Below are positions 13,533 to 61,953 of a DNA stretch of 64,000 nt, piece after piece. The translations under genes were made by a program, and so were the position numbers. Origin of the DNA: Dictyostelium discoideum (lineage: Eukaryota); assembly GCA_000004695.1 (NCBI GenBank), contig CM000150.2:2464001-2528000 (forward strand), given 5' to 3'. Below the pieces are notes generated by a model, which did not search any database, was not told the origin of the DNA, and was given only the letters and a program-made list of their open reading frames with translations. Position 1 is the first letter of the stretch, and each line of letters starts with the position of its first letter.

Positions 13533-13622
<90 letters not shown>

Positions 13623-21209: not shown

Positions 21210-21256
<47 letters not shown>

Positions 21257-21936: not shown

Positions 21937-21988
21937 ATAAAAATAAAAATAAAAAATTAAAATAAAAATTAAATTATGTATTGTTTAT

Positions 21989-24073: not shown

Positions 24074-24105
<32 letters not shown>

Positions 24106-24139
24106 TACTATTATTATTTATTTGATTATTTGTTGCCAT
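21989..24139 (-). CDS. DEAH-box ATP-dependent RNA helicase (DHX35/Prp43-like)
   Basis: 716-aa ORF with GNTGCGKSTQIPQY (motif I), DEAHERSL (motif II), SATL, QRAGRAGR (motif VI) and the OB/HA2 C-terminal region. The N-terminus is poly-N. An upstream exon cannot be ruled out. Confidence 0.85.
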
Positions 24140-40109: not shown

Positions 40110-41723
40110 TTACTTCTTTAAAGATTGGATGATGAGATGAATCAATTGAATATTCAGTGAAAATGAATCGACAACATTGATTTGTCCACTATCTAAAGAA
40201 TTGATAACGATTGATATTAATAGATTCATATTATTTAATAAAACATTAACCATTGTAATATTTAAATTTTTAAAATAATTGGAAATCTTTAAATGACCAC
40301 ATTGTGATGTAGAATAATTTAAAATGTTTGAAAGTAGGTCAATAACATCACCACTAATACCACTAGTATCACCACTATTACCATATCTAAATAATAAAAA
40401 AGATAAAGTTACATCTAATAAAAGTAAATCACCTCTTTTTGAAATTTCAAATGCCAAATATTTGCAATTAAAAAATTTCTTATTTTTAAAAATTTTAATG
40501 ATTTGATTTTTATCATTATTGTCACAAGTATTATCGCAATTGTTAAATAAATTTGAGTTCAACTTTTTCCCATTATAATATTCCATTAAAATTAAATCTG
40601 AATTATCAACTAAACATCTTTTTGGTTCAATTTCTAAATACTTATTCCCACATATATTATAAACGTTGTTTATTAATTGATTTAATTATAGTATCTGAAT
40701 TAATTTTGCCTATTTTTTAAGAATATTGGTTTGGTAATTTAAAAACACAATTTTAAAAATATAAATTTCTTACCAATTGTGACCATTTATTTAAATAAAT
40801 AACTCCATTCCATATATAAGGATCACCATCATTCTTTTTTTTAACCAAAATATATTTATTCATTAGACCATCCAATTATTTAAAAGTTTTGATAGTTTCT
40901 TTTGCCAAAATTTTACTCTCAATTACTTCCAACTTAATGACTCCTGTTTTTTTCTCGTCAACCTTTTTTTTGAGGTCTTCAGAATAGAAAGAGGCTGATG
41001 ATACCCTTTTTGCTCCAGAACCTGGAAAAACTGTATTAATGGTTTGAATATTTAAATTACCATTAATAATATACTTTGGAATAATATGAAGTTCTTCTTT
41101 TGACAAAGTTATACAAATTGAATGCTGCGCGTGTTGATTATCTAAAGTCCCTGTACCGTAATTATAAAGAGGATGATATAAGGTTCTGGAGATTTTGGAA
41201 CACTGTGAATTACATGAATTCCCCCTTCTTCATTCCAAATAAAAAATCCTTTTGCATGTGCCTTTTTTAACACATGAAACATATGAAAAAAAAAGAATTA
41301 ACAACAAATTATAATAAAAAAAAAATAAAAATAAAAATTTAAAATTAACACATACACTATTATCTCCACGGGTTGATCATTATAGGTCAAACTATTATAT
41401 ATAGTTTTACCAGAGCTATTTGGATAACTCTGTTTGTATGTTGATGCAATTGGGTTTGGCTCATGCGGATTCCTAATATTATAATAAGCTAATTCATTAA
41501 TCACCCTATTTAATTCATTATCAGTATAAATAGCACCTCTACTGTGACTCAATTGTTCTAAAACCCACCATTCAACATTCTTTTCTATTTTAACTCCATC
41601 TTTATCTATAAACACCTGACTTTTTGTATAAACATTTTTTGTTGTTATACATTTTGGAGGAACACAATAAATTTGTGATATTAATAAAAATAAATATAGA
41701 ACTATTATATATTTATTTTTCAT
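40110..41723 (-). pseudogene. DNase II-like paralog, copy A. It keeps the signal-peptide exon (41298..41723) and the second exon (carrying one frameshift), but the third exon is deleted or diverged
   Basis: Exon 1 (MKNKYIIVLYLFLLISQIYCVPPKCITTKNVYTKSQVFIDKDGVKIEKNVEWWVLEQLSHSRGAIYTDN...) is paralogous to 55336..55734. Exon 2 (about 40800-41270) codes AHAKGFFIWNEEGGIHVIHSVPKSPE, then a 1-nt frameshift relative to copy B, then ...HAQHSICITLSKEELHIIPKY.... Downstream of the conserved intron (about 40715-40800) the sequence no longer codes DNase II motifs. The 158-aa ORF 40110..40586 is unrelated and low-complexity. Confidence 0.55.
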
Positions 41724-41744
41724 TTCTTAGATCTAGTATAAAAA

Positions 41745-42113: not shown

Positions 42114-44047
42114 ATGGTAAAATATAAAATAATAATATCATTTTTATTTTTTATTTTATATTGCAATTGTTTCACATTTGGTAGTTACACATTTGATACA
42201 AAAAATTGGTCAACAAATGGTACACTATCATCATGTGTTTTTTATGATTTTGTAAATAACGATTATTATGATTTAAGAGCTATTGTCCACAATGATCATC
42301 AAGGTCCTTACAAAGCAAGTTTTCCTGCCGAACTTCCTGGTGGAATTCAAACACCTTATACAATGTATTTTAATCCTTGTTTTAATGATAATGTGTGTCC
42401 AGGTGGTCTTTCAGTAGGTTGTATGAGTTATGTGCAAAATTCACAAAAAATTCTTAATTCCGTTGGTTCACTTTCAGAGCCACATTCTATAACATTAAAT
42501 TCAGAAGGTATTTCTATTGAATATCAATCAGCTCTTTTACCATCAACAACATGTGCCTCTAATGGTAACCGTAGAACTTTGGTTTTATTTATTACTTGTA
42601 TCCCAACCGAAACATTTAAAATTATTGGTACTTATAACAGAAGAGTATTATGTGAACATACAATTTATATATCTTCAAAATTAGTTTGTAAAGATAGAGG
42701 AATATTATTTAATCAAGGTCTATTTTATGATTTAACACCAATGAAATTGTAAGTTGTTAAATTCTTTTTTATATTTTTTTTTTATTTTAATTTTTTTTTT
42801 TTTTTGTTTTTAATAAAAAAAAAAAAAACCAAACACGAAATTTTTTGTTTTTAATAAAAATTAAAATATCTAACCACTTTTTTTTCAATTTTTTATTTTT
42901 TTCTTCCCACAGATTAGCAAGCACTTCACACCAAATTACCAACAGTGACCAAACACAAGATATTCTCTTTAATTTATTCGGAAATGTAAATAGATGTGGT
43001 ACTTTCGGTACATCAACATTAAGTTATCAATCATGTATTTTAACAGTTGCTAATAAAGTGATCGATTATAAACTAGATTCAAGATATGCAACATCACCAA
43101 AATCAGTTATGGTAGGATCTCTCAGTCAACCAAGAACAATTACATTTACAAATGATGTAATAACCATAATTTATAGTTCAACAACTGGTTTCACAGAATG
43201 CTCATCAAATGGTAACAAATATTCATCAAAGTATATTTTAATTTGTGATCCATTCACAGAATATTATGTAGATAAATTTACATTAGAATCACAATGTATT
43301 TATCAAATTAAGGTTTATACTAAATACGCATGTCCAACATTACGTTTATTCAAACAAACACAATATTATGACCTTTCACCATTGATGTTGTAAGTATTCA
43401 ATTTATTCTTGTATTTCTTCAAAACAGTTATTAATTATTAATAATAAAATAAATAATAGGGATTCAACAAGAAATTATACAACAAGTCATATTACAGACG
43501 GATATGAGTATAATATTGTATTCAATATTGGTAATAAAGCACAAATGTGTAGCGATGCATTTAATGATTATTATTTTGCTTGTCAATATGATCCACGTTA
43601 TAAAAGTTTTAATCCACTTGCAAAGGCAAGTTTAGGTCAAAGAGTAACATTTGATTTAAATCAAGTTAAATTCGAATATACTTCACCAATGTCAGGTTGT
43701 TTAAGAACTTTTATTATTGTTTTAACTTGTGATGAAAACCAACATTATCAATTAGTTTCAACTTTAGAATCTCCTGCATGTGTATATACAGTAACAATTG
43801 AAACTAAATATGTATGTGAATCAACAATTTATTACAATAGATTCGACTATACATATTATGATATTACTCCAATAAAAACGTAAGTTTTAAATTAAATTTG
43901 AAATTAAATTTAAATATAAATAATAATATTAATAATATTAATAATCTTTATTGTCAACAACTAAAATATTAATTTAATTAGAGAAAAAGATAGTCCAAAT
44001 AAAATAGATATTGTTGTTGGTGGATATCCATATAGAGTAAGTAAATT

Positions 44048-44100
<53 letters not shown>

Positions 44101-47100
44101 AACAAATATTTTTCTAATAGCTTTTTTATGGTATCGGTAATACTGTTGATTATTGCGGAGAACAAGTGGGATCAGTCCCTGGTGTAGATTATCAAGCTTG
44201 TCAATATCTCAGTGGTCTTGTTATTCAAGTCGGTAGTTTAAAAAATACATCAATGATTCTTAATAAGGATGGTATAAGTATATATCATACCTCACCATTC
44301 GATTTAACCAAAGTGTGCCAAAATACAAGATATCAAAGAGTAAACATTTTAAATATGGTATGTGATCCAACAGCAACAAATGTTGTGGTCAGCGCTACTG
44401 AGACTGCCAACAATTGGGCATGTGAATATACAATCGAAATTAAAACTAAATATGCATGTTCAATTAATTATGCACCAGTATTACCAGTTGTTGGAAATCC
44501 ATGTTTATACAGTTGTACACCACCAGGTGCTTTAAATCCAAAAGCTATAGTTAGTGTACTTTTAAATTTAGGTGTTTGTTTCTCAGAGATTAATAAATAT
44601 GGTACAGGTGCACAATCATTACTTAATATATTTAAAGATACTTGGGTTTCAAATCACAATGGGTATGATGATTGGATGGGTGGACAACTTTATTCACTAT
44701 TATTAACAGGTAAACCACAGTCAACAATTTCACCATATGTTATTTCAATTACACATGATAATTTATGTACATATGGTGCCGATGGGTTAAGTAAAGCAAA
44801 AAATTCAATCAATGATTTTCTTACTATTACAAATGATCTTCTTGAAATTTCAAATCGTGCAGTTAGTTTAACCGTTACCAAATATACATATTCAGATGGA
44901 GCAATTACATTATCAACACATAAACTTTTATCAACATCAACTGGAGGTCTTGCAATTATTAAATACAAAAATTTGCTATGCTACTATTCAATAGTCCCAA
45001 ATTTACAAACTTTAATTATTGGGAGTTATTTGCTTTCTTGCCCATATTATTCACTACCAACTATTACAGTGCACAGTTTAACACCATCAATAGGGAAAGT
45101 TGGAGATACTATCACAATTAATGGTCAAAATTTAGATACAGATATATATGATGTTTATTTCAACATTATTGATGACAACAGTAAAATTAAAGCAACAATA
45201 ACATCAAGAACCGTAAATTTTGTAAAAGTAATTGTTCCAAATGGTTTTGGTAATGCATTAGTCTACACTCAAAATATACTTAATCCAACTACCTCCGATA
45301 AACTTTCATTTTCATATCCATCACCAACGATTGTCAAAGTAATTAGTCAACCATTTAGTACAGGTATCATCAATAGATTCTTTGTTATTGGTCAAAACCA
45401 TCGTTCTTTAATAACCAATATTGTTATTAATCCATACATCGATAATATTGAAAAAGAAGCAATTTATTGTGAAATTGAAAAGTATTGTCCAAGTTCATCA
45501 AAAATTCCATCGATTTCAGGATCAGCAGTAGGTCATCCATGTATTGATTCAACAGTTTACTCTGAGAATTCCCAGTTTTTCGATTATTCCAAGTATGATG
45601 TTTTTGTTTGTATCAAATCATCATTAGGTGTTGGAAGTGGTATCATTAAATTCCCATCACAAACATTTACATTTGCATACTCTTATAAAGCACCTCTCTT
45701 ATATTTTGTACCACCTGGCATTCGTATTCCAACTGATGGTGGTAGTTTTCAATTGGATGGTAAAAACTTTCCGCCAACACAAGAAATCATTGATCTCGGT
45801 TTAAACACACCTGTAATCATTTGGAATAATGATAATTTTGTTACATTCAAAGGAACAAATCTTGCAAATACCAATATCAATTGGAAGAGTTCGAAATCGA
45901 TTTTATGTGTTGCACCACCTGGTTTCGGTGGACCATTCATCGTTACAGTAACTGTCGGTAAACAAGTGTCAAAGACTATATATCCAAGTGATTTAGATGA
46001 AAATCCAACAAATTATAATTTATATTATTATCCCCCAGCAGTTGTTGACATATCAGAAGTTTCAACTGATGGTGGTGAAGTTATAATAAAAGGTACAAAT
46101 TTTATTCCAGCCTCGCTTAAAGATCAAATTAATAATCAACCAATAATCGGTTCACCTCATTCAGTAGAGTTTAATAATGTTTTATCTTCATCATGGACAT
46201 GGATTGATTCAACACATGTAAAAGCCATCGTACAAAAAGGTATTGGTACAATCTCTACAATTGTAAATGTTGGTGGTCAAAGATCTGATTTAAATCCAAT
46301 TCCTGTAAATTTTTACAAAAGACCTGAACTAGATAATAAAAAATATGAAAACTTTGCAAATAGTGATATTTTAATAACTGGTTCTAATTTTATACCAGTT
46401 GGTGTTTCAGCAGGTTCATCAAGTTCTGTCAAAATCGGAGGTATTCCCTGTAACTCTGTAACATGGGTAGATTCAAAATCTGTTATTTGTAATGTGCCAA
46501 TTGGAACTGGTGATAATTTAAATATCCAAGTAACAGTTGGAGGTCAACAAACCGAATTAAATGATTATTTCTCATATTTAGGGCAATGCGATTTCCTCTG
46601 TAGCGATTTATCAAATTTAGTAAGTTTTTAAACATTTTAATTACAGAAAAAAAAAAAAAAACTAAAAAATACTAATTTATTATCATTTTTATCTCAAAGG
46701 AATTAGCAAAAGTTATTGGGGAAAATAAAAAAGATTTAAAGAGTACTCTTTTATTAACAGGTGTATGTTTAGAACAAATTGAGCAATATAATTTCACAGA
46801 TATTAATGATGAAATTGAATCAAGTTGGATTGAAAACTCAATTATTGATGATTGGACAAGTGGTAAATTCTATAACTATTTCAAATCATCAGAATCATAC
46901 TCAACAGTTAAAACACTTGCAAAATATATTACACCAAAGAATCCATGTATTTATGAAAATAAAAGAGTAAAGAATTCATTAGATTACCTTTTTGAAATCA
47001 ATTCAGATATTTTCCATTTAATTGAACTTTCAATTTCATCAAAAATCAGTTATCCAGATTCACCATATGAAACTTATTTCTATGAATCATCAAGCAACCC

Positions 47101-50100
47101 AGAGTATGGTCTTTCAATTATTACATTTGATTCAGCAATTTGTAGCTTTACAGAATCAACTATTCAAGACTATCAAAGTGGAAAAGTATTACAATCATGT
47201 TCAATCATTCCAATTATAAATCAAGTAATTAATCCAACAACAACACTTCAAGCACCATATCAATATTCACTTACAATAATTGGTAGATTATTTGATAGTT
47301 CAACTAGAATATTCTTATCAGGTTATGAATGTCCAATCATTGGTAATATCGCTACTAATCAAAATGATTATATTCAAACTCTTAGTTGTTCAGTACCACC
47401 AGAAATCGAATCATACTCGGCCTCTCAAATTACTTTTTACAATGATTATAGTGAAAATAATATATATAATTTCTTGTTTTATTTTAAAAAATCATTCTTT
47501 TTTAAATATCCAATTTCAACAGTAACTCAAATTCAATACCCATCAAGTGGTCCAATTCAAATGAATTCTGAAATTAAAGTAATTGGTTTTAATTTCTTCC
47601 CATATGGTATTACAAATCCAAGCATTCAAGTTTTTATTGATGATCTTGAATTAACTGATACTATATTTGGATTAACAAGCATAAATGGAGTTGATTCATT
47701 TTCATTTATTGCTTCTGGTTTAGGTTCTTTAAAGTAAGTGAAAAAAAAAAAATTAAAAAAAAAAATTTATAAATATTTATTAATATTTAAAAATATTTTT
47801 TTACAGTTTCATTCGATTATTTTATAGTAATAGTTTACCGATGTTTATAAACGATGATATTAATTTAGAATTCTCATTTGAAAGACCAATTATTAATAGT
47901 ATATTACCAACAAATGGAGATTACAATACAAAAGTTACAATTAATGGTAATAATTTTAGAAAAGGTCAATCAGTAAAAATTGGAGACATATTAGTAAATG
48001 ATATTGAATTCATTTCAAACCAAGAGATTATTGCTTCAGCACCATTTGGATTTATTAGTGGACTTGTAGTTGTTTATTCAGATGATCAATTCAGTTTAGA
48101 AGAAATATCATTTAGTTATACTTCACCAATTATAGACCAAGTTATTCTTTCAAATTATGAATCAAAATTAAACACAACAGGTACAAATTATTTCACAGTA
48201 ATAGGTAGAGGTTTAGGTACATACATTGCAGAACAAGTCGATATTATTATCAATCAAGAGTTTTATGCAAGTTGCGAATTCGATTTCTGTGAAAGTTTAG
48301 AAATTATTGAAGATATAGATATAAAAGATCAAGGAATTTGTCAATATTTAAAATATAATAAATATCAATATATCAATGAAAACTTTGATATATTAAATTG
48401 TATTTTAACCGATTCGATTGGTAAAGATAAATCAATCAGTATCAAAATTTCAGAATTCCAAAACCAAACTTTCACCTACTCTTATTATGAACCATGGATT
48501 GAAAAATTAACACAAAACTCTTCATCAGCAAACACTGATGGTGGTGAAGTTATCGTTATAAATGGTTACAACTTTTTACCATTCGAAAATTTAAGTCCAT
48601 ACTATGAAAACAATGAAACTATTGCACAATGGTTAAATCAATCAGAAATATTAATTGGTGAAAGCTATCTTTGTCAATCAATTAATTGGACCAATTCCTA
48701 TGAATTAAATTGTACAATCCCACCAGGAATTGGTGTTAATCATACAATCATTGTAAAAGTAGGCCTTCAATCATCAAATCATACTGATTATTTGTATTCT
48801 TACGATTCACCAAACCTTGATACAATCAATAACTCCACTGGAAATGAAACACATTACTATTCTTCAACAGATGGTAACAATGAAATTATAATAACAGGTT
48901 ATAACTTTATTCCAAAAGAGTTATCAGATCATTACAACCAGAATGAAAATAAAACCATAAATTCAATACTATTAGGTAAACAATATTGTAATGAAACTAT
49001 TTGGATTAATTCAACAACAGTCAAATGTAAACCAATAGCAGGTATCGGGTCAAATTACAAAATTATCATTAAAGTTGGTAATCAAGATTCAAACGAAACC
49101 GTTTACTTCTCATATGAGAAGCCAATTTTAGATTTAAAGAATTACACAGGTTCAACAAATGGTAATACTGAAATTACAATAACAGGTATCAACTTTATTC
49201 CAAAAGAATTAGCAGATAATAATAATTTCAATCAATCAGAGAACTATATAATGATTGGTGATAATAAATGTAACGAAACTATTTGGATCAACTCAACAAC
49301 AGTTAAATGTAAACCAATATCAGGTACTGGTATCAATCATAGAGTTATAATAACAGTTGGTAATCAAAACTCAAATGAAACGGTCTACTTTTCATATGAT
49401 AAACCAATTTTAGATATTAAAAACTATAGTAGTCCAACTGATGGCAATACTGAAATCACAATAACAGGTGAAAACTTTATTCCAAAAGAATTAGCAGAAA
49501 ATAATAATTTCAATCAATCAGAGAACTATATAATGATTGGTAATAATGAATGTAATGAAACTATTTGGATCAATTCAACAACAGTTAAATGTAAACCGTT
49601 AGCAGGTATCGGGTCAAATTACAAAATTTTCATTAAAGTTGGTAATCAAGATTCAAATGAAACCGTTTACTTCTCATATGAGATGCCAATTTTAGATTTA
49701 AAGAATTACACAGGTTCAACAAATGGTAATACTGAAATTACAATAACAGGTATCAACTTTATTCCAAAAGAATTAGCAGATAATAATAATTTCAATCAAT
49801 CAGAGAACTATATAATGATTGGTGATAATAAATGTAATGAAACTACTTGGATCAATTCAACAACAGTTAAATGTAAACCAATATCAGGTACTGGTATCAA
49901 TCATAAAGTTATCATAACAGTTGGTAATCAAAACTCAAATGAAACGGTCTACTTTTCATATGATAAACCAATTTTAGATATTAAAAACTATAGTAGTCCA
50001 ACTGATGGAAATACTGAAATCACAATTACAGGTGAAAACTTTATTGAAAATTATAATCAAGAAAAACATAATGAAAATGATAATTTCGTTAGAATTGGTG

Positions 50101-52856
50101 AAAATAAATGTAATGAAACAAAGTGGATAAATTCGACAACAATTAAATGTAAAATAATTCAAGGTATTGGTTTAGATTATAAAATAGTTGTAACAGTTGC
50201 CAATCAACAATCAAATGAAAATGTTTTCTTTTCATATGAAAAACCAATGATTGACAGTAAAACACTATTAGCATCAACCAGTGGCAGTGAAACTATTAAA
50301 ATTACAGGTACTAATTTCATTCCATCAACTTTAGTAGAACATTACAACAAAGAAGAAAATAAAGATAACTCAATAAATTCAGTTACTATCAATAACGAGT
50401 TTTGTAATGATATTACATGGATTAGCTCAACAGAACTAACATGTAAACCATTAGCAGGAGTTGGAACCAATCATACTATATTCATTTTGGTTGGAACTCA
50501 AAAATCAAATGAAGAAAACTCATTCTCATATAAACCTCCGAATATTGAAGAGTTTAAATACTACACAGCACCAACACATTCCAATAAAATTATTACTATA
50601 ACTGGTGAAAACTTTATTCCAATCGAATTATTATCAAAAGACAACAGCAATAGTTCAGTACTTATTGATAATATAAAATGTGAAGAAATCAAATGGATTG
50701 ATTCAACAAAAGTTTCATGTCAAGTTCCAGTAGGTCAAGGTAAAGATTTATCGATTAAAGTTAAAATTGAAAATCAAGAAACTGAAGAAAATCAACAATT
50801 TTCATATGATAAACCATTTATTCAATCAATCAATCCAAATAAAGGAAGATGTAATCAAGAAGTATTAATTACAATTCAAGGTGATAGTTTTGGAAAGAGT
50901 GATCAACTAATTAAAATTGGTAATAACGAATGTCAAGATATTCAATTCTATCCAAATCATACATTTACATGTAAAGTTCCAATCGTGGAGAATTCAATTG
51001 AATCCATTGTTTTATTAAATGTTGGCAATCAAGATTCAAACGATAACATTACATATAAATACTATGGACCACCAGAAATTAAAAGTATTGGTTTACCATC
51101 ATATCTTTCATTCAAAGGTGATGATTTAATTACAATCATTGGTAATAACTTTATAGAATATGATGATGGATCTGATGAAATTGTTAAATTTAATAATGAA
51201 CCAACAACTATCATTGAAAACACAGAAACATACATTAAAATTAAAACTCTTAGTGGTGATGAATTTAATGTACCAATTGCTGTAGAATTAAATGGTCAAA
51301 TAAGTAATACAGATACTTCATTCGTTTACTCAAATCCAATAATTGAAAGTGTAACACCATCATCAAGTAGCTCAAAATCAAATACTAATATCATCATTAA
51401 AGGACATAATCTTGGGTATTTAACAAACACTCCCAAAATTACAATTGGAAGTAGTAATTGTTTAAATATCAAAACTATATCTCCAAATGAAATTCATTGC
51501 ATCGTTATGAAATCAAGCGCAGGCACTAAACAATTAACATTAACCTATGAAAGTTATCAACCAACCTATTCACAATTCACTCACAAAAACGATGATGACA
51601 GTGATAGCCACGATGATGATGATGATGACCATAAAAACAATAATGGACCAAAAAACACCATATTAAGTATTCTTGGAGGTATAATTGGAGCAGCAGCATC
51701 AGCAGCCGTAAGTGGATTTATAACAAGCATTTTCGGTGGTGCGACATCAGTAGCCACAGCAGCAGCAACAGCAACAGCAGCAGGTACTGCGGTAGCAGCA
51801 GCAACTACAGCGTCAACAGCAACAGCTATTGCCGGTGCAATTACCGAAGGTGTTGCAGTGGCCTTTACAGGGGTATCAGTAATAGCAGCAACAGCAGGTG
51901 GTGTTGTTATTACTTCAATTGTAACAGCAACAGCCATCCTTATTTCAGGTGGAAGTACACAATCACCAACTCCAACCATAGCTCCAACTATTTCACCAAC
52001 TCCAACGCCAACCGATAACTATTGGGTAAGATGTATGGTCGATTATTCAAGATTAACTTTACAAGTCGATAATCTTTACGGTCAAGATATAGTATGTATT
52101 GATGGTAATGGAATTTCATCAATTTTCAACGAATCATTCTCTTGTAAACCTGATCTTATTAACGATGGTATGATATGTGCTCAACAACATCAAGATGGAA
52201 CAAATTCAACAACCACATTTGGTAATTCAACATTAATTTGTCATATTGACTCAACAAAATCATGTGAAATTTCACCACCATTCATCATACCATCCGATCC
52301 AATTGAAGATGATGAATATTCAAATATTCTAGAATGTCAATATAATCTCATTGAAAATTCATTATCAACACACTCTAATAATAGTCCACTAAGATGTTAT
52401 AATAATGAAACTGAAAATTACTTCATTATGAATACTACACTTTCATGCTCAAAAGATGAATCATTAAGTCAAGATAAAGATACGATTTCTTGTTTAGCAG
52501 ATACAGATGACACTCAAATCTTTTTCTATAAGAACTCAATTACATGCATTACAGATTATCCATACTATAGATGTACAATGAAATCTCAACCATCACAAGA
52601 TGATAACATAATTCCAAAACCAACATTACCACCAATTCCATCAATTGATGATGATTCCACATGTATTTATGATTCAGCCAATTCATATTCAATAGATCTC
52701 CAACTAACGACTGGAACTAATGCTAAATGTCCAAAAAATGAAAAAGAACTTCGTTATGATCTTTCAACTTCTCTAACATGCACTGATTATATCACACTTA
52801 AAAACTCCACTTATTCAATTTCATATTCAAATTACATTTGCATTAAAACAAAATAA
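42114..52856 (+). CDS. Giant secreted or membrane protein (~3,390 aa): signal peptide, ~5 MRH/CI-MPR-like Cys repeats, >=15 IPT/TIG repeats, a Gly/Ala/Thr/Val-rich hydrophobic segment, and a C-terminal Cys-rich domain. Model: join(42114..42748,42913..43389,43460..43879,43982..44036,44121..46619,46700..47733,47807..52856)
   Basis: All six donors are GTAAGT. The acceptors are CCCACAG, AATAG, ATTAG, CTAATAG, TCAAAG and TTTACAG, and the phases check out (635+477+420+55+2499+1034+5050 = 10170 nt). The N-terminus MVKYKIIISFLFFILYCNCF is a signal peptide. Exons 1-3 and 5 each code ~150-aa modules ending C-x-Y-x-[IV]-x-[IV]-x-TKY[AV]C followed by YYD[LI][ST]P. That is the same motif order as cation-independent mannose-6-phosphate receptor (CI-MPR) repeats, C.Y.F.W.T..AC then [YF]DLSPL. 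Exons 5-7 code repeated TDGG...I.G.NFIP...C....W.....VKC....G.G......V.VG.Q.S modules (IPT/TIG-like). A segment ILSILGGIIGAAASAAVSGFITSIFGGATSVATAAATATAAGTAVAAATTASTATAIAGAI...VVITSIVTATAILISGG sits at 51660-51960. This is followed by a Thr/Pro linker and a ~290-aa Cys-rich C-terminus. Confidence 0.75.
48990..50040 (+). repeat. Near-identical tandem repeats inside exon 7 (two alternating ~270-bp TIG modules, A-B-A'-B')
   Basis: ...ITGYNFIPKELSDHYNQNENKTINSILLGKQYCNETIWINSTTVKCKPIAGIGSNYKIIIKVGNQDSNETVYFSYEKPILDLKNYTGSTNGNTEITITGINFIPKELADNNNFNQSENYIMIGDNKCNETIWINSTTVKCKPISGTGINHRVIITVGNQNSNETVYFSYDKPILDIKNYSSPTDGNTEITITGENFIPKELAENNNF... repeats almost verbatim, at above 95% nucleotide identity. 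Confidence 0.8.
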
Positions 52857-53194
52857 AAACAATTAAAAAATTTTAAAAAACAAAATGATATAATAATTTA
52901 ATGAAATAATTTAATTACTATTTTTACTATTTTTTTTATTTTCAAAAAACTGTAATTAAATTATTTCATTAAATCATTATGTCACACCACCCAAAATTCA
53001 ATTCTGAAAACTTTTTTTATTTAATTACCCTTAAGAAAAAATTAAATGTGAAAATAAATGTTATATTTATTTTAGTTTTGTTTTTTTTTTTAAATTATCA
53101 TTAATAATAATGATGCACCATTTGGTATTATCTAATTTTGAAAACTAAAAAAAAAAAAATTTATTTTTGGAATTAGTTAAATTTAAAAAAAAAT

Positions 53195-55300
53195 TTAAAT
53201 TAAAATATAATTAATACTTACACCTTTGGTATATTCACCCAAAACTTTTGTAAATTCCTTAATGGAATTGATGTTTTGTAGATCACCATGTCTATTTTCA
53301 GTTAAGAGAATACAATAGATAAGATGATCTTGGCAATCTGGATGATATTTAATGATTTTTGAGTCTGTATCACTTGGAAAAGCTTTACATATTTTTTTAT
53401 TAATTTCATTATAATCCTTATGACCTTTTTCGCTATCACTTTGATCGCCTTCGATTTTATTTGGGAATTTAAATGGTACTAAATCATTGATTTCAACTTC
53501 TTTCAATTGAATGATGTTTTTATTTTTAATAAATTTCAATTTTTCATAAAGTTCTTTTACTAAATCAATATTTTTTAAATCGATATATATCTTATCTGGG
53601 AAAGGTGTGAGTATTGATGTTGGTTCGATAATGGTATTTTGTGTTAGAGCAGTTACCTTTTTATTATCTCTTGATGAGGTAAGTGTAAATGTTGATTCAA
53701 CATAGATATCTTTAAACAATTGGTAAGATTTGGATTTTTCAAAGCTACAAGTGACATCATCATTATCACATAAAATAATTTCCCCATTGATTGATGGAAA
53801 CACATTGAAATCGAATAACTCTGATTTGTATATATTTTGATCCTTAAGTTGGGTTAATAGTGGAATATAAACATTGTCATAACCATAGTTATATTCATTT
53901 GAAAATAATTTATCTTCATCTTTTTCATTATTGTAAACGATATTAAATGGATTCAAATGATAGTATTTTTCATCATCTCCATAACCTTTTACCTTGGTTT
54001 CAAAGTTTAGCTTTCTGTTACCTAAAACATTAGATCATTTGGATATTTTTCTATTAATTCGTTTAAATTCAACTTTTGACCTGCAATGCTATTTAATCTT
54101 AAAGAAGCTTTTCTAAGATATTGACCATCCTCTGGGTGTCTAATTATACCAACTCTTCTGTAAAAGTATTCAGAAAGATATTTCATTTCGTCACTGCAAA
54201 AAGAACCACCTCCACGTGCCTCTTGCCTTCCATGCCAATTTAAATCACCAAAGCAAATAGTCCCACCACCGCCACCGCTATATGCTTTATCCATATAATT
54301 GATTTGATAAGACATTTTTGAATGGTCACTTCCTGAATCAGAGCTAATAACTGTTGACCAAGGTGTTTCGAATCTGTAAGAAAGATATATTGATACAACT
54401 GCTGGAGACATTTCATTTTTTCCTTTTTCCATCTTTGTTTGAGTATGGACCATTGTTTTAAAATTATTACCATTTTTAAAACTATAGATGTAATGCCAAA
54501 GTATAAAAAATTTAATTTTTTCCTTGTGAGTATTTTCAATTTTATCACTATACTCTTTATAAAGGTGTGTATTTGTTGTTTGAATGAAGTAATCCCCTTT
54601 ATTTTTACTCTCATAAATTTTATTATAGTGAACATTTGTTTCATGAGCTGTATCTGATGATGTAATATTTTTGTTTAGAATTAAATCTGCCTATTTTAAG
54701 AATGTAAGTTTGATGATTTATTAACACAAATTTATAATTAAAATTACTTACCAATTGTGACCATTTATTTAAATAAATAATTCCATCCCATATATCAGGA
54801 TCAACTTTATTCTTTTTTTTAACAAAAATATTATCACTCATTAGATCATCCAATTCTTTAAAAGTTTTGGGAATTTTTGTTTCTAAAATTGAACTATCAA
54901 TTTTTTCCAACTTAATGACTCCTGAGCTTATCTTTTCAACCTCTGTTTGAAGATTTTCGGAATAAGAATCGGCTGATGATACCTTTTTAACCTTTTTACC
55001 ATTTCCTGTTGAAACTGTATTAATGGTTTGAATATTTAAATTACTATAAATAATATACTTTGGAATAATATAAAGTTCTTCTTTTGACAAAGTTATACAA
55101 ATTGAATGTTGAGCATGTTGATGATTTAAAGTATTTTTATCGAAATTAAAAAGAGGTTCATATCCTGTTTCTGGAGATCTTGGAACACTGTGAATTACAT
55201 GAATTCCCCCATTTTCATTCCAAATGAAAAATCCTTTTGCATGTGCCTTTTTTAAATAAATAAATTAAAAAAAAAAAATATGTTAACAAATAATGATAAC

Positions 55301-55337
<37 letters not shown>

Positions 55338-55734
55338 AATAATAAACACAAACACTATCTTCACCACTACTGAGCTGATCATTATAAGTCAAACTATTAT
55401 ATATAATTTTGTTGTCAGATTTATTTGGTAAACTCTGTTTGTATGTAGATGTAATAGGGTTTGGTTCTTTTGGATCTCTAATATTATAATTTGCAATTTC
55501 ATTTATCTCTGAACTTCCTCCTTTTAATGTGTTATCAGTATAAATAGCACCTTGACTGTGACTTAATTGTTCTAAAAACCACCATTCGACATTCTTTTCT
55601 ATTTTAACTCCATCCTCAAATACTTGACTATCCTTGTAAATATTTTTTGTTGTTATACATTTTGGAGGATCGTTACAATAAATAGGTGATATTAATACAA
55701 ATAAATATAAAAAAATAATATATTTATTTCTCAT
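53195..55734 (-). CDS. DNase II-like (acid deoxyribonuclease) paralog, copy B. Exons approx complement(join(54022..54690,54751..55246,~55350..55734)). The C-terminal extension ORF 53195..53956 is out of frame because of a 4-nt deletion relative to copy C
   Basis: The N-terminus MRNKYIIFLYLFVLISPIYC is a signal peptide. Exon 2 codes KKAHAKGFFIWNENGGIHVIHSVPRSPETGYEPLFNF (first DNase II HxK motif). Exon 3 codes ...SDSGSDHSKMSYQINYMDKAYSGGGGGTICFGDLNWHGRQEARGGGSFCSDE (second HxK and the RGGG..C motif) and then ends KYPNDLMF* at 54022. The paralog-conserved continuation (KLNFETKVKGYGDDEKYYHLNPFNIVYNNEKDEDKLFSNEYNYGYDNVY...SINYILI*) is in another frame; ccaaatgatctaatgttttagg here corresponds to ccacagcgtctaaaagaaattttagg in copy C. 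Intron donors are GTAAGT. Confidence 0.6.
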
Positions 55735-56164
55735 TTTCTTAAGTCTAATGTTATAATGTTTGTTTCAATTTTTTAAAATTGGGTGTGTTTTTGCGAAAAA
55801 AAAAAAAAAAAAAAAAAAAATGGCTTTGTCGTCAACAAAAAAGAAAAAAAACTAAAATTGGATCATTTAAAATAAAATAAAAAAACGAACGAAAATATTT
55901 TTTTTTAATCGTTTTTAGATGGTTTTACCACTCCTTTGATTATTGAAAATCTTTTTTAAATATTTTTAGATTTTTTTTTTTTTATTTTTTTCGACCCATT
56001 ATTTTATAAAAAAAAAAATAATAAAAATTACCCCCACAAACCGCTTTTTTTTTTTTTTTTCACAAAGCCTGGTTTTTAATTTTTTTAACACTTTTTGGCT
56101 TTGCATCTTTATCGCTTAAAATACGGTTTGGAAAATACAACATTTTTTTTTTAATCAACCATAC

Positions 56165-56196
<32 letters not shown>

Positions 56197-56212
56197 TCGT
56201 ATTGAAATTAAA

Positions 56213-57808
56213 AAAAAATGGTAAAATTTTAAATAGTTATATCATTTTTATTATTTATTTTATATTTTAATTGTTTCACATTTGGTAGTTACACATTTGA
56301 TACAAAAAATTGGTCAACAAATGGTACACTATCATCATGTGTTTTTTATGATTTTGTAAATAACGATTATTATGATTTAAGAGCTATTGTCTATCCTGAT
56401 CATCGAGGTTCCCACAGAGCAAGTTTCACAGCTGAGCTTTCTGGTGGAATTCAAACACCATATACAATATATTTTAATCCTTGTTTTAATGATCATATGT
56501 GTCCAGGTGGTCTTTCAGTAGGTTGTATGCAAAAATAGAGGAGTATTATTTAATCAAGGTCTATTTTATGATTTAACACCAATGAAATTGTAAGTTATTA
56601 AATTCTTTTTCATATTTATTTTTTTATATTTTTTTTTTTTAAAATAATTATCAAAAAATAAAAAAAAAAAAGAACCAAACACAAAATTTCAAAATAAAAA
56701 AATCTAATCTTTTTTCACTTTTTTTTATTTTTTTTTAATTTTTTTATTTTTATTTTTTTTTCCCACAGATTAACAAGCACTTCACACCAAATCACCAATG
56801 ATGACCATACAAAAGATATTCTCTTTAATTTATTCGGAAATGTAAATAGATGTGGTACTTTCGGTACATCAACATTAAGTTATCAATCATGTATTTTAAC
56901 AGTTGCTAATAAAGCGATCAATTATAAACTAGATTCAAGATATGCAACATCACCAAAATCAGTTATGGTAGGATCTCTCAGTCAACCAAGAACAATTACA
57001 TTTACAAATGATGTAATAACCATAATTTATAGTTCAACAACTGGTTTCACAGAATGCTCATCAAATGGTAACAAATATTCATCAAAGTATATTTTAATTT
57101 GTGATCCATTCACAGAATATTATGTAGATAAATTTACATTAGAATCACAATGTATTTATCAAATCAAAGTTTATACTAAATACGCATGTCCAACATTACG
57201 TTTATTCAAACAAACACAATATTATGATCTTTCGCCATTGATGTTGTAAGTATTCAATTTAATTAAAAAACTTTTTTGGTGTTTTATTCTTTTGCGCTTA
57301 TTAATTATTAATAATAAAATAAATAATAGGGATTCAGCAAGAAATTATACAACAAGTCACTTTACAGACGGATCTGAGTTTTTTATTGTATTCAATATTG
57401 GTAATAAAGCACAAATGTGTAGCGATGCATTAAATGATTATTATTTTTCTTGTCAATACGAACCACGTCAAAAATTTTTTTATCCACTTGCAAAGGCAAG
57501 TTTAGGTCATAGAGTAACATTTGATTTAAATCAAGTTAAATTTGAATATACTTCACCATCAACAACAACTTGCTCATCAAATTCCTATAAAAGAGATCTT
57601 ATTGTTATTTTAAATTGTGATGAAAACCAACATTATCAATTAGTTTCAACTTTAGAATCTCCAACATGTGTATATACAATAACAATTAAAACTAAATATG
57701 TATGTGAATCAACAATTTATTACAATAGAATTAACTATACCTATTATGATATTACTCCAATAAAAACGTAAGTTTTAAATTAAATTTAATTATAAATTAT
57801 AAATTATA

Positions 57809-57874
<66 letters not shown>

Positions 57875-60800
57875 TATAACTTTATTAACAACCAAAACTA
57901 TTAATTTTAATTAGAACAAAAGATAGTCCAAAAACTGTAGATATTGTTGTTGGTGGATATCCATATAAAGTAAGGGATAATTTTTAAATTTTTAAATTTT
58001 TTTTTTTTTTTTTTTTTTTTTTTGACAAACACCAAACGTGTGTGAAACTAAAATTTAAATATTTTATATATATTTAAAAATGGTTACTAACTTTACTTTA
58101 TTAATTTTTTCCAACAGCTTTATTACGGTATAGGTAATACTGTTAATTATTGCTCAAATCAAGTGGAGTCAGTTCCAGGTGTTGATTATCAAGCTTGCCA
58201 ATATCTCAGCGGTCTTGTTATTCAAGTCGGTAGTTTAAAAAATACATCAATGTATATAAGTAATAATGGTATAAGTATATATCATACCACACCATTTGAT
58301 TTAACCAGAGTATGCCAAAATACAAGATATCAAAGAGTGATACAACAGCAATTAACGTTGTGGTCAGCGCTACGGAGACTGCCAATTATTGGGCATGTGA
58401 ATATACAATCGAAATTAAAACCAAATATGCATGTCCAATTAATTATGCACCAGTATTACCAGTTGTTGGAAATCCATGTTTATACACTTGCACACCACCA
58501 GGTGCTTTAAATCCAAAAGCTATAGTTTGTGTACTTTTAAATTTAGGCTTGTTTCTCAGAGATTAATAAATATGGTACAGGTGCACAATCATTACTTGTT
58601 ATATTCAACAATACTTGGGTTTTAAACCACAACGGATATGATGATTGGATGGGTGGACAACTTTATTCACTATTACTAACAGGTAAACCACAAACATCGA
58701 TTTCACCATATGTTAGTTCAATTACACATGATAATTTATGTACATATGGTACCAATGGGTTAAGTAAAGCAAAAAATTCAATCAATGATTTTCTTACTAT
58801 CACAAATGATCTTCTTGAAATTTCAAATCGTGCAGCCAGTTCAACCGTTACCAAATATACATATTCAGATGGAGAAATTACATTATCAACACATAAACTT
58901 TTGTCAACATCAACTGGAGGTCTTGCAATTATTAAATACAAAAATTTGCTATGCTACTATTCAATAGTTTCAAATTTACAAACTTTAGTTATTTCGAATT
59001 ATTTGCTTTCATGTCCATATTATTCACCAACTATTACAGTGTTCAGTTTAACACCATCAACAGGGCAAATTGGAGATATTATCACAATTAATGGTCAAAA
59101 TTTAGATACAAATAGATATGATGTTTATTTCAACATTATTGATGACAACAGTAAAATTAAAGCAACAATAACATCAAAGTAATTAGTCAACCATTTAGTA
59201 CAGATATCATCAATAGATTCTTTGTTATTGGTCAAAACCATCGTTCTTTAATAACCAATATCACCATTTATCCATATATCGATAATATTGAAAAAGAAAC
59301 AATATATTGTGAAATTGAAAAGTATTGTCCAAGTTCATCAAAAATTCCATCGATTCCAGAATCAGCAGTAGGTCATCCATGTATTGATTCAACAGTTTAC
59401 TCTGAGAATTCTCAGTTTATAAGGTACAAATTTTATTCCAGCCTCGCTTGCAGATCAAATTAATAATCAATCATTAATTGGTTCACCAAATTCAGTCACG
59501 TTTAATAATGTTTTATCTTCATCATGGAAATGGATTAACTCAACACATGTAAAAGCCATCGTACAAAAAGGTATTGGAGCAATCCTTACAATTGTAAATG
59601 TTGGAAGCCAAAGTACTGAAACGAGTCCATATCCCGTAATTTTTTATAAACAACCTGAATTAGATAATAAAAAATATGAAAACTTTGCAAATAGTAATAT
59701 TTTAATAACTGGTTCTAATTTTGTACCAGTTAGTGTTTCAGCAGGTTCATCAAGTTCTGTCAAAATCGGAGGTATTCCCTGTAACTCTGTAACATGGGTA
59801 GATTCAAAATCTGTTATTTGTAATGTACTAATTGGAACTGGTGATAATTTAAATATCCAAGTAACAGTTGGAGGTCAACAAACCGAATTAAATAATTATT
59901 TCTCATATTTAGGGCAATGCGATTTCCTCTGTAGCGATTTATCAAATTTAGTAAGTTTTTAAACATTTTAATTACAGAGGAAAAAAAAAACTAAAAAATA
60001 CTAATTTTTTACATTATAATCTCAAAGGAATTAGAAAAAGTTATTAGAGAAAATAAAAAAGATTTAAAGCAATAGTTCAGTACTTATTGATAATATAAAA
60101 TGTGAAGAAATCAAATGGATTGATTCAACAAAAGTTTCATGTCAAGTTCCAGTAGGTCAAGGCAAAGATTTATCGATTAAAGTTAAAATTGAAAATCAAG
60201 AAACTGAAGAAAATCAACAATTTTCATATGATAAACCATTTATTCAATCAATCAATCCAATTAAAGGAAGATGTAATCAAGAAGTATTAATTACAATTCA
60301 AGGTGATAGTTTTGGAAAGAGTGATCAACTAATTAAAATTGGTAATAACGAATGTCAAGATATTCAATTCTATCCAAATCATACATTTACATGTAAAGTT
60401 CCAATCGTGGAGAATTCAATTGAATCCATTGTTTTATTAAATATTGGCAATCAAGATTCAAACGATAACATTACATATAAATACTATGGACCACCAGAAA
60501 TTAAAAGTATTGGTTTACCTTCACATCTTTCATTTAAAGGTGATGATTTAATTACAATCATTGGTAATAACTTTATAGAATATGAAGATGGATCTGATGA
60601 AATTGTTGTTAAATTTAATAATGAACCAACAACTATCATTGAAAACACAGAAACATACATTAAAATTAAAATTCTTAGTGGTGATGAATTTAATGTAACA
60701 GCAACAGCCATCCTTATTTCAGGTGGAAGTACACAATCACCAACTCCAACCATAGCTCCAACTATTTCACCAACTCCAACGCCAACCGATAACTATTGGG

Positions 60801-61629
60801 TAAGATGTATGGTCGATTATTCAAGATTAACTTTACAAGTCGATAATCTTTACGGTCAAGATATAGTATGTATTGATGGTAATGGAATTTCATCAATTTT
60901 CAACGAATCATTCTCTTGTAAACCTGATCTTATTAACGATGGTATGATATGTGCTCAACAACATCAAGATGGAACAAATTCAACAACCACATTTGGTAAT
61001 TCAACATTAATTTGTCATATTGACTCAACAAAATCATGTGAAATTTCACCACCATTCATTATACCATCCGATCCAATTGAAGAGATGAATATTCAAATAT
61101 TTTAGAATGTCAATATAATCTCAATGAAAATTCATTATCAACACACTCTAATAATAGTCCACTAAGATGTTATAATAATGAAACTGAAAATTACTTCATT
61201 ATGAATACTACACTTTCATGCTCAAAAGATGAATCATTAAGTCAAGATAAAGATACGATTTCTTGTTTAGCAGATACAGATGATACTCAAATCTTTTTCT
61301 ATAAGAACTCAATTACATGCATTACAGATTATCCATACTATAGATGTACAATGAAATCTCAACCATCACCAGATGATAACATAATTCCAAAACCAACATT
61401 ACCACCAATTCCATCAATTGATGATGATTCCACATGTATTTATGATTCAGCCAATCCATATTCAATAGATCTCCAACTAACGACTGGAACTAATGCTAAA
61501 TGTCCAAAAAATGAAAAAGAACTTCGTTATGATCTTTCAACTTCTCTAACATGCACTGATTATATCACACTTAAAAACTCCACTTATTCAATTTCATATT
61601 CAAATTACATTTGCATTAAAACAAAATAA
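56213..61629 (+). pseudogene. Decayed tandem duplicate of the giant MRH/TIG gene (5.4 kb versus 10.7 kb)
   Basis: It is co-linear with 42114-52856 at roughly 90-97% identity, but it carries the following lesions: (1) the start is disrupted (ATGGTAAAATTTTAA); (2) ~290 bp of exon 1 is deleted at 56530 (..ggttgtatg|caaaaatagagg..); (3) frameshifts and deletions occur in the exon-5 homolog at about 58335, 58550, 59175 and 59425; (4) a ~3.9-kb deletion joins the exon-6 start to the late TIG repeats at 60075; (5) a ~660-bp deletion at 60700 removes the Gly/Ala-rich segment; (6) a 1-nt deletion lies at 61090. The exon 2-4 homologs (56763-57968) and the C-terminal Cys-rich region (60700-61629) are still largely open. 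There is an (ATA)n microsatellite at 57812-57870. Confidence 0.75.
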
Positions 61630-61953
61630 AAACAATTAAAAAATTTTAAAAAACAAAATGATATAATAATTTAATGAAATAATTTAATTACTATTTTTAC
61701 TATTTTTTTTTATTTTCGAAAAACTGTAATTAAATTATTTCATTAAATCATTATGTCATACCACCCAAAATTCAATTCTGAAAACTTTTTTTTTATTTAA
61801 TTACCCTTAAGAAAAAATTAAATGTGAAAATAAATGTTATATTTATTTTAGTATTGTTTTATTAATTTAAATTATTAATGCACCGTTTATCTAATTTTGA
61901 AAACTAAAAAAAAAAAAATTTATTTTTGGAATTAGTTAAATTTAAAAAAAAAT

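Follow-up and report, generated by a model that had tools for sequence, protein, structure and literature searches.

The window analysed here, a 64,000-nt stretch of Dictyostelium discoideum DNA, carries on its forward strand a giant gene (42114..52856) with DNase II sequences on both sides. The gene starts with an ATG at 42114, its stop codon ends at 52856, and splicing and translation gave seven exons (42114-42748, 42913-43389, 43460-43879, 43982-44036, 44121-46619, 46700-47733 and 47807-52856) separated by six introns (42749-42912, 43390-43459, 43880-43981, 44037-44120, 46620-46699 and 47734-47806). The spliced coding sequence of 10,170 nt encodes 3,389 aa in frame without an internal stop, in agreement with the seven exons, single ~10.2-kb CDS and ~3,390 aa of the initial annotation. 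All six introns have the form GTAAGT...AG, with lengths of 70-164 nt and a GC content of 7-14%. The gene cannot be a product of chance, since its frame stays open for 10 kb and its six introns are canonical in DNA of roughly 20-30% GC. It is real and intact, and the AX4 annotation already contains it under a generic name: the protein is D. discoideum AX4 XP_002649194.1 (UniProt C7FZX2, "IPT/TIG domain-containing protein", 3,380 aa), from which it differs only at the intron-6 acceptor. The protein is therefore not new to the databases, and the paralogue DDB_G0290815 and the orthologues of D. firmibasis and D. purpureum have likewise received the automatic name 'MRH domain-containing protein'. 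Comparison with the AX4 gene model upheld every splice site except the last, for which AX4 uses the acceptor at 47834 (3,380 aa); an alternative acceptor at 47828 gives 3,382 aa and an exact match to KAM9941430.1. The translations from AX4 and from a second D. discoideum assembly are the same everywhere except at this junction.

The claim that DNase II genes lie next to the giant gene was confirmed by a Pfam search of the open reading frames of the window, which gave DNase_II matches on both sides of it (55339-55734, 54025-54453 and 41301-41723, all on the reverse strand). Downstream lies a DNase II gene (53090..55728, reverse strand), for which the 99.97%-identical locus L002 has a gene call of 775 aa. 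It is tail-to-tail to the giant gene and head-to-head to P0002 (55814..61099, forward strand), the next copy, a decayed paralogue with large internal deletions and a predicted product of 1,321 aa. Upstream, the 5' fragment of a DNase II gene (40697..41735, reverse strand) faces the giant gene head-to-head across ~390 bp; its DNA is 90% identical to the 5' part of the L001 DNase II gene, and the profile match within it covers DNase_II positions 7-81. This head-to-head pairing occurs in D. purpureum as well as in D. discoideum. The family to which the giant gene belongs is dictyostelid-specific, and its copies arise by tandem duplication together with DNase II genes. Several other MRH proteins are present in the D. 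discoideum genome.

Both neighbouring copies, P0001 and P0002, are fragmented. Coding constraint shows in the comparison with the next paralogue, relative to which the giant gene has only indels in multiples of three, no stops and a dN/dS of 0.49. Patches of very low dS suggest gene conversion. Taken with the decayed copies, a dN/dS of ~0.5 points to relaxed constraint. The fragmented neighbours, the dN/dS and the low-dS patches would also suit the view that the gene, as part of a repeat family that expanded recently, is decaying or can largely be dispensed with and has no separate function. We consider this highly improbable, because the 10.2-kb frame is intact over seven exons, the indels relative to the next copy are all in frame, the coding sequence is identical in AX4 and the second assembly outside the intron-6 junction, and the architecture of four MRH modules, X and TIG is found in D. 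cf. discoideum and D. firmibasis and is kept as far as D. purpureum.

The N-terminus of the giant protein (residues 1-23, MVKYKIIISFLFFILYCNCFTFG; 42114..42182) appears signal-peptide-like from its hydrophobicity, with a Kyte-Doolittle hydrophobic segment at residues 4-25. It is followed by module 1 (residues 41-196; 42234..42701; alignments and hmmsearch with a module profile, E 4e-59), module 2 (residues 197-357; 42702..43348, across intron 1; alignments and module profile), module 3 (residues 358-495; 43349..43832, across intron 2) and module 4 (residues 496-647; 43833..44474, across introns 3 and 4; module profile, E 4e-62), the last of which includes a micro-exon of about 54 nt (43982-44036). 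A PDB search with a profile of these modules returned 18 matches, all of them MRH proteins, with CI-MPR at E 3.4e-16. Searched against 1.84 billion representative proteins, the module profile gave 196 matches, including CI-MPR-type proteins from choanoflagellates and sea urchins that are 2,300-2,600 aa long and matched in 10-16 stretches. Against Pfam, module 3 alone scored just above the PRKCSH_1 cutoff (23.5 bits, cutoff 23) and module 4 gave only weak CIMR, ATG27 and PRKCSH_1 matches, whereas modules 1 and 2 gave none and the whole protein stayed under the PRKCSH_1 cutoff at 17.7 bits. The Cys framework of the MRH superfamily is present, with eight Cys in conserved columns in module 1 and six each in modules 2-4, as is, in modules 2-4, its C-x-Y-x-Phi-x-Phi-x-T-x-x-A-C signature, which is degenerate in module 1. 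The motifs described in the initial annotation hold for modules 2-4, in the form C-x-Y-x-[IV]-x-[IV]-x-TKY[AV]C and then [FY]YD[LI][TS]P, but are likewise degenerate in module 1. A structure model of module 3, made from a paralogous copy that differs by two residues from the module of the giant gene, had a pLDDT of 88.9 and a pTM of 0.82. The flattened β-barrel of ~140-155 aa, with nine strands in two sheets, that is expected of the superfamily was found, and the best 38 Foldseek matches of the model were all MRH (TM 0.67-0.75). Profile search, Pfam (modules 3 and 4) and fold together identify all four modules at the N-terminus as genuine MRH (P-type lectin) domains, as the initial annotation had proposed.

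In all sugar-binding MRH domains, a tetrad of Gln, Arg, Glu and Tyr holds the mannose ring. Alignment showed this tetrad to be complete in module 3 (Q413, 43584-43586; R453, 43704-43706; E474, 43767-43769; Y480, 43785-43787) and present in the profile columns of module 4 (Q557, R602, E623 and Y632). Both sets align to Q348/R391/E416/Y421 of CI-MPR domain 3, whose loop C bears S386 beside the ligand. R391 of CI-MPR has been called essential, and four residues are described as essential in carbohydrate binding (PMC7481795). Module 1 lacks the Gln, Glu and Tyr, with His182 at the Tyr position, and module 2 lacks the Arg and the Gln, which is replaced by Ile. The conserved residues that had been sought in all N-terminal modules were thus recovered in modules 3 and 4 but not in modules 1 and 2, and just these two of the four look sugar-competent. 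Since modules 3 and 4 keep Gln, Arg, Glu and Tyr, a lectin function for them is plausible. The full tetrad of module 3 was present in every copy examined (the window, P0003, P0004, P0005 and the L002 paralogue), and the motifs YQ[AS]CQ, Arg and E-x3-C-x-Y recur in dictyostelid MRH modules, a pattern that would be expected if sugar binding were under selection. Loop C of module 3 is 6 aa shorter in the giant gene than in the neighbouring paralogue, and the neighbouring intact paralogue has Ser in place of the Gln of module 4; together with the dN/dS of ~0.5, these differences count against a lectin-receptor reading.

Of the 15 domains of CI-MPR, 11 bind protein or have a purely structural role. 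The giant protein could similarly be a structural component of a matrix, sheath or coat, or a homophilic adhesin, with MRH modules that bind protein or play a structural part but bind no sugar. The missing tetrad residues of modules 1 and 2 and the shortened loop C of module 3 are consistent with this. We nevertheless hold it to be unlikely, though the strongest of the competing accounts, given the full tetrad of module 3 in every copy and the recurrent dictyostelid motifs.

Behind the MRH modules, two copies of a domain X alternate with two runs of TIG modules: X copy 1 (residues 648-840; 44475..45053), TIG modules 1-5 (residues 841-1348; 45054..46577), X copy 2 (residues 1349-1535; 46578..47218, across intron 5) and TIG modules 6-20 (residues 1536-2963; 47219..51575, across intron 6). 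The X copies, ~190 aa each, share 26% identity (BLASTP, E 1e-14), and copy 1 has no Pfam match and no relative in the PDB. On the whole protein, Pfam TIG matched 15 stretches (E 9e-161, 522.8 bits). Periodicity gave 20 modules: 15 exceed the PF01833 gathering threshold (20.9 bits) on their own, three fall under it and two with inserts have no match, in accord with the at least 15 IPT/TIG-like modules noted earlier. Modules 1-5 scored 40.2, none, 25.2, 20.0 and 51.0 bits, respectively. Within modules 6-20, Tandem Repeats Finder detected a 282-nt unit repeated 4.5 times (48987-50248), and these modules hold 39 of the 51 N-x-S/T sequons of the giant protein, which contains 90 Cys.

The TIG array is followed by an acidic run read from the sequence (residues 2968-2982, DDDSDSHDDDDDDHK; 51588..51632) and by a hydrophobic segment in which small residues predominate (residues 2991-3089; 51657..51953), with Kyte-Doolittle values of at least 1.6 over residues 2990-3017 and 3047-3091. 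The stretch of ~100 residues said to consist almost entirely of G/A/T/V/I/S was indeed found, with 93 of 101 positions at residues 2990-3090, and its DNA has a GC content of 0.44-0.48 inside an AT-rich gene. The segment is kept in the paralogue P0004, and the paralogue P0015 has a single strong transmembrane helix at the equivalent place. We presume that the segment is a membrane anchor with one to four passes. With the single helix of P0015, the Cys-rich domain beyond it would face the cytosol, which would be odd. A Pro/Thr/Ser linker, likewise read from the sequence (residues 3090-3110; 51954..52016), leads to a family-specific Cys-rich C-terminal domain (residues 3111-3389; 52017..52853). 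Its aligned part contains 16 Cys, 13 of which are common to the giant protein and the 25%-identical P0015, and residues 3001-3389 hold seven sequons, bearing out the Cys- and N-glycosylation-site-rich domain first described. The domain has no significant match in Pfam, and the only outside relative found is a fragment of DDB_G0289225. The recent 282-nt duplications of the TIG array, the Pro/Thr linker and the Cys-rich end resemble extracellular structural proteins, and one TIG module has a weak TgrO1-like Ig match (19.1 bits, under the cutoff); these features again fit a structural or homophilic role.

The hydrophobic N-terminus, the 51 sequons, the 90 Cys and the conserved C-terminal Cys argue for routing through the secretory pathway. 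We favour the explanation, to which we give about an even chance, that the giant protein is a glycan-binding, membrane-anchored receptor or adhesin of the cell surface or a lumen, its layout being taken from the sequence. The giant glycoprotein would enter the secretory pathway via its signal peptide. Its four-MRH cassette tops a stalk of ~20 TIG (Ig-like) modules, which the two X domains interrupt. The small-residue segment would tie this stalk to the membrane, with a disulfide-type C-terminal domain beyond it. Modules 3 and 4 would recognise N-glycans based on mannose, perhaps with the methyl-phosphorylated or sulfated mannose that is typical of Dictyostelium glycoproteins, whereas modules 1 and 2 would be scaffolding, the part that most CI-MPR domains play. 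The long, heavily N-glycosylated TIG rod would keep the lectin head far off the membrane, where, on the cell surface or inside the endo-lysosomal lumen, it could capture glycoproteins, matrix, prey or adjacent cells.

The initial annotation had proposed a sorting or adhesion receptor. If it were a sorting receptor, the MRH cassette would carry methyl-phosphomannosyl hydrolases, including the adjacent DNase II, to lysosomes as a counterpart of the MPRs. MRH modules with an intact tetrad and the DNase II pairing in two species speak for this, and dictyostelid N-glycans bear Man-6-P that is often methylated (PMC11795075), while Dictyostelium is described in an older paper as being without detectable Man-6-P receptors (PMC2114169). 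Against it, the giant protein has a 280-aa domain with conserved Cys instead of a single transmembrane helix and a short cytosolic tail with sorting motifs, and no known cargo receptor has a role for a stalk of ~20 TIG modules. Within the family, copy number turns over and some copies have decayed, and better candidates exist among the smaller type I dictyostelid MRH proteins, such as P0054, with an MRH domain at 30-174, a transmembrane helix within 584-614 and a short tail. Lysosomal enzyme sorting in Dictyostelium is not known to fail when GlcNAc-1-phosphotransferase or sulfation is lost, which we also count against it. We therefore regard the sorting part of the proposal as improbable and retain the receptor or adhesin part, because the protein lacks a classical MPR tail; a TIG rod with a distal lectin head suits a receptor or adhesin of the surface or endo-lysosomal system, not a Golgi-to-lysosome cargo receptor.

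Dictyostelium was among the first non-vertebrates shown to phosphorylate the mannose of lysosomal enzymes. According to the older literature it has no detectable mannose-6-phosphate receptor (PMC2114169), and the giant protein is a candidate lectin of this organism. The presence in dictyostelids of MPR-type domains whose tetrad is intact bears on what reads the methyl-phosphate and sulfate marks, and modules 3-4 (~290 aa) with four point mutants provide a reagent to ask whether an endogenous lectin does so. It is a long shot that modules 3 and 4 are the first endogenous lectin domains specific for the dictyostelid marks Man-6-P-OMe and Man-6-SO4, capturing or tethering marked glycoproteins at the surface or in phagolysosomes. 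If they were, the DNase II pairing in two Dictyostelium species, a second testable lead, could reflect a co-regulated module of nuclease plus tether, for example for digesting prey or extracellular DNA.

An MRH cassette on a TIG stalk is an architecture undescribed for P-type lectins. CI-MPR has 15 contiguous MRH domains and CD-MPR one, whereas the giant protein has four, with six Cys in modules 2-4 compared to eight per CI-MPR module. It also lacks the FnII insert and the classical type I topology of the MPRs, with their single transmembrane helix and short tail carrying tyrosine or acidic-dileucine signals; its ~100-aa hydrophobic segment is followed by the Pro/Thr linker and the 280-aa domain. 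Its ~20 TIG domains, two X domains and Cys-rich C-terminal domain go beyond CI-MPR, and it is not a CI-MPR orthologue. Drosophila LERP and the Trichomonas TvMPRs (five MRH domains) are like it in having few tandem, non-vertebrate MRH domains. They lack most of the Man-6-P-binding residues of the human receptor (PMC8717582). Both are type I proteins with short tails bearing YxxPhi or DxxLL. The giant protein, in contrast, lacks such a tail, carries a TIG stalk and retains the tetrad in two modules. OS-9/Yos9, XTP3-B/ERLEC1, glucosidase II beta and GNPTG are soluble ER or Golgi proteins in which one or two MRH domains are combined with different partner domains.

TgrB1/TgrC1, plexins, Met and fibrocystin resemble the giant protein in placing an extracellular IPT/TIG array on a membrane anchor, and the Tgr proteins are, like its family, polymorphic or multi-copy and arranged in tandem. 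Tgr proteins are far smaller: they have a few TIG domains and a single transmembrane helix but no MRH domain. Membership in the Tgr allorecognition family was rejected, since the one Ig_TgrO1 match among the TIG modules lies below the Pfam cutoff of 27.9 bits, with no significant Tgr-specific match, and the architecture is quite different. The paralogue P0015, a single 2,456-aa gene in newer assemblies that AX4 splits into DDB_G0290815 and DDB_G0290813, lies on a different chromosome-sized AX4 record (5,125,352 bp) from that of the giant gene (4,923,596 bp). It is shorter, has its X domains in tandem and has one clear transmembrane helix rather than a 100-aa hydrophobic segment. It nevertheless follows the same order as the giant protein, with 23-36% identity across aligned blocks: four MRH modules, two X domains, a TIG array, the transmembrane helix, a Ser/Thr/Pro linker and the Cys-rich end.

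The giant gene lies on the plus strand at 42114-52856 of the window, where long open segments occur in three frames. Joining seven exons (42114-42748, 42913-43389, 43460-43879, 43982-44036, 44121-46619, 46700-47733 and 47807-52856) gave a coding sequence of 10,170 nt, or 3,389 aa, with zero internal stops, showing that the coordinates, exon count and length proposed in the initial annotation were correct. All six introns start with GTAAGT, end with AG, are 70-164 nt long and have 7-14% GC, compared to roughly 25-35% in the exons. The exact 3,389-aa sequence was absent from a collection of 15 billion proteins. When exon 7 was started at 47828, an acceptor 21 nt downstream, the 3,382-aa product was an exact match to D. 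discoideum KAM9941430.1. The 90% cluster representative of this protein is the 3,380-aa AX4 "IPT/TIG domain-containing protein" (XP_002649194.1 / EEU04144.1 / UniProt C7FZX2), encoded on a 4,923,596-bp AX4 record and the same as the 3,389-aa translation except that the third AG is used (exon 7 from 47834). Around the end of intron 6 (47807-47834), three AG acceptors, all in frame, fall in a span of 27 nt and yield 3,389, 3,382 or 3,380 aa, and three annotations have each made a different choice. The D. firmibasis model retains a counterpart of the seven disputed residues (NYIQLVF vs NFIRLFY), which would mildly favour the 47807 acceptor chosen initially. Window 45814-64000 matched a long-read contig of D. 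discoideum at 99.97% identity.

The description of the protein as uncharacterised held in that full-text literature searches found no papers on the gene, but the protein was already in the AX4 annotation. An "MRH domain-containing protein" encoded by DDB_G0283243 carries D413Y in a huntingtin suppressor strain (PMC12954983). Identity of the giant gene with DDB_G0283243 was rejected, since the latter is on chromosome 4 and the giant gene on the 4,923,596-bp record, and since residue 413 of the giant protein is Gln.

The N-terminal region consists of four modules, each about 140-160 aa long (residues 41-196, 197-357, 358-495 and 496-647), which share 23-27% pairwise identity and a common cysteine framework. 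Pfam PRKCSH_1 was sub-threshold on the entire protein (17.7 bits) and scored 23.5 bits on module 3 alone (cutoff 23). Module 4 matched ATG27, CIMR and PRKCSH_1, all weakly, and all three are also found among the Pfam matches of MRH-containing relatives. When all PDB sequences were searched with a profile of the modules, 18 matches were returned, all of them MRH proteins; CI-MPR was matched at E 3.4e-16, and the others were ERLEC1, glucosidase II beta, CD-MPR and GNPTG. Against 1.84 billion representative proteins the profile gave 196 matches, with dictyostelid relatives first, followed by proteins of 2,300-2,600 aa with 10-16 matched stretches; among those looked up, one was a sea-urchin CI-MPR and two were from choanoflagellates.

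AlphaFold modelling of modules 3-4 from a shallow 8-row alignment was poor (pLDDT 44.5) and was not relied on; its Foldseek matches were all MRH, from a model too poor for them to count. An alignment of 36 dictyostelid MRH modules gave a nine-stranded model of module 3 (pLDDT 88.9, pTM 0.82), built on a paralogous copy that differs at 2 residues from the module in the window. The first 38 PDB structures matched to this model by Foldseek were MRH, with TM scores of 0.67-0.75 to CD-MPR/CI-MPR domains, and past these the E-values leapt from 3e-3 to 0.2. The predicted fold establishes module 3 as a member of the MRH superfamily, and modules 1, 2 and 4 are assigned to it because they are homologous to module 3. 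The MRH/CIMR-type identity originally proposed for these modules, with AlphaFold as a check, was thus borne out by the PDB profile search and the module 3 fold, the Pfam scores being marginal. Introns 1-3 (42749-42912, 43390-43459 and 43880-43981) are all of phase 2 and occupy an equivalent repeat position, three residues beyond the YD[LI][ST]P Pro. One MRH unit apiece is encoded by exons 2 and 3, a signature of exon duplication.

The four carbohydrate-binding residues of CI-MPR domain 3, which we take to be Q348, R391, E416 and Y421 (numbering counted from the printed HMMER alignment), aligned with Q413, R453, E474 and Y480 of module 3 in HMMER and MAFFT alignments. Their counterparts in the profile columns of module 4 are Q557, R602, E623 and Y632. 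Module 1 retains the Arg alone, with Tyr replaced by His, and module 2 has neither the Gln nor the Arg. As judged by alignment, these comparisons show that the sugar-binding residues, whose presence the initial annotation had proposed to check, are retained as a full tetrad in modules 3 and 4 and not in modules 1 and 2. The motifs YQ[AS]CQ, Arg and E-x3-C-x-Y recur in many dictyostelid MRH modules. In loop C of module 3 (43700 region), 18 nt present in the next paralogue are deleted in frame. This deletion is common to the giant gene and P0001, a decayed family copy, and shortens the loop from the conserved Cys to Arg453. In CI-MPR, loop C bears S386, which is adjacent to the ligand (PMC7481795). 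The next paralogue has Ser at the module 4 Gln position. Both the deletion and this substitution call for caution in predicting sugar binding.

Beyond the MRH modules, Pfam TIG matched 15 stretches of the protein (E 9e-161), and an F-x-Y / P-x-I periodicity defined 20 modules, 15 of which scored above the cutoff alone in per-module Pfam scans, 3 below it, and 2, bearing inserts, had no match. This agrees with the earlier count of at least 15 IPT/TIG modules. A home-made iterative HMM for TIG drifted into a partial model of 59 positions and was replaced by the per-module scans. Modules 12-15 correspond to a 282-nt tandem repeat of 4.5 copies with 81-83% matches. Weak, sub-cutoff matches of the protein to SPRY and Peptidase_C25_C were dismissed. 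A further domain, X, is present twice, at residues 648-840 (window 44475-45053) and 1349-1535 (window 46578-47218); the copies are 26% identical (E 1e-14), and the domain shows invariant Cys and Trp positions. Domain X had zero relatives in Pfam or PDB searches. It also occurs in the family proteins P0005 and P0009 and, as two tandem copies, in the diverged paralogue P0015.

An acidic run is followed by a hydrophobic segment (residues 2990-3090), in which 93 of 101 residues are A, T, G, I, S or V and one is charged. This is the stretch of about 100 G/A/T/V/I/S residues noticed at the outset. Its Kyte-Doolittle peaks fall at residues 2990-3017 and 3047-3091. GC in the underlying DNA (51657-51953) rises to 44-48%, against an AT-rich background in the rest of the gene, which we read as pointing to selection to keep the Ala/Gly codons. 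The segment is kept in copies of 82-88% identity, and in P0015, which is 25% identical, the equivalent position is occupied by a single very strong transmembrane helix. Downstream lie a linker of Pro/Thr and a C-terminal domain of 280 aa, for which a search gave a fragment of DDB_G0289225 as the sole outside match. This domain is Cys-rich, as reported: it has 16 Cys, and P0015 shares 13 of them, a pattern typical of disulfide-bonded domains outside the cytoplasm.

Compared to the next intact paralogue, the giant gene has only indels that are multiples of three, zero stops and an overall dN/dS of 0.49. Over window 42114-47995, compared with positions 19227-25286 of the second D. discoideum locus (L002), dS for modules 2-3 was 0.03 and that for modules 1 and 4 was 0.24-0.32; such uneven divergence suggests patches of gene conversion between the tandem paralogues. 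The order of four MRH modules, X and TIG was also found in D. cf. discoideum, D. firmibasis and D. purpureum. The diverged AX4 paralogue is on another chromosome-sized record and is split into DDB_G0290815 (1,544 aa) and DDB_G0290813 (901 aa), which several newer D. discoideum assemblies present as one gene of ~2,456 aa; the reference model is therefore probably split. UniProt already uses the name "MRH domain-containing protein" for DDB_G0290815 and for the proteins of D. firmibasis and D. purpureum. In the full-text searches, DDB_G0290815 appeared solely in a list of genes without recoverable mutants (PMC7190356).

The giant gene belongs to a tandem array of MRH-TIG genes on the plus strand alternating with DNase II genes on the minus strand, an arrangement found at two loci on one D. 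discoideum contig, decayed copies P0001 and P0002 included. A 5' DNase II fragment (40697-41735, minus) is head-to-head with the giant gene, about 390 bp away. On the other side are a DNase II gene (about 53090-55728, minus), the decayed MRH-TIG copy P0002 (about 55814-61099, plus) with large internal deletions, and a second DNase II gene (from about 61856, minus). The DNase II neighbours described previously are thus present on both sides. The neighbouring DNase II genes have annotated products of 775-804 aa in D. discoideum and 643 aa in D. purpureum; DNase II is usually well below 775-804 aa. The DNase_II profile spans part of each neighbouring gene, and a 253-aa 3' ORF (53198-53956, minus) had no Pfam match. 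Further upstream (1-40000), ordinary Dictyostelium genes were seen by eye, including a helicase-like ORF (21989-24139, minus), an ORF resembling a kinase plus RasGEF (12607-14925, minus) and an acidic-tailed ORF (4850-5686, plus).

In D. purpureum (GL871026.1, positions 6994-15033 of the locus), a DNase II gene on the minus strand, identified by a precomputed Pfam match, is head-to-head with the MRH-TIG orthologue on the plus strand, as in D. discoideum. The orthologue is followed by a 2,041-aa TIG gene, which is probably its continuation. Searched by tblastn with the DNase II pieces of the window, neither the D. purpureum nor the D. firmibasis locus gave a match, and by this search the D. firmibasis locus has no DNase II. 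The pairing with DNase II is the one observation that sustains a link to lysosomal enzymes, for which the giant protein was initially proposed as a candidate sorting receptor. We rate this role low, because the protein is missing the defining type I tail, no known cargo receptor makes use of a stalk such as its TIG array, dictyostelids also have smaller MRH proteins of the classical layout (such as P0054, with an MRH domain, a transmembrane helix and a short tail), and copies turn over within the MRH-TIG family. The initial annotation was confirmed in its observations and in part in its interpretation, with the sorting-receptor role rated low.

Collectively, these results show that the giant protein carries an MRH lectin-type head, with the sugar-binding residues kept in two of its modules, on top of a long TIG stalk, and that it combines a conserved hydrophobic anchor with features of the secretory pathway. 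We infer binding of mannose-type N-glycans by this protein, either at the cell surface or in an endocytic lumen. Present though unstudied in the reference annotation, the giant protein is a new architecture among P-type lectins.
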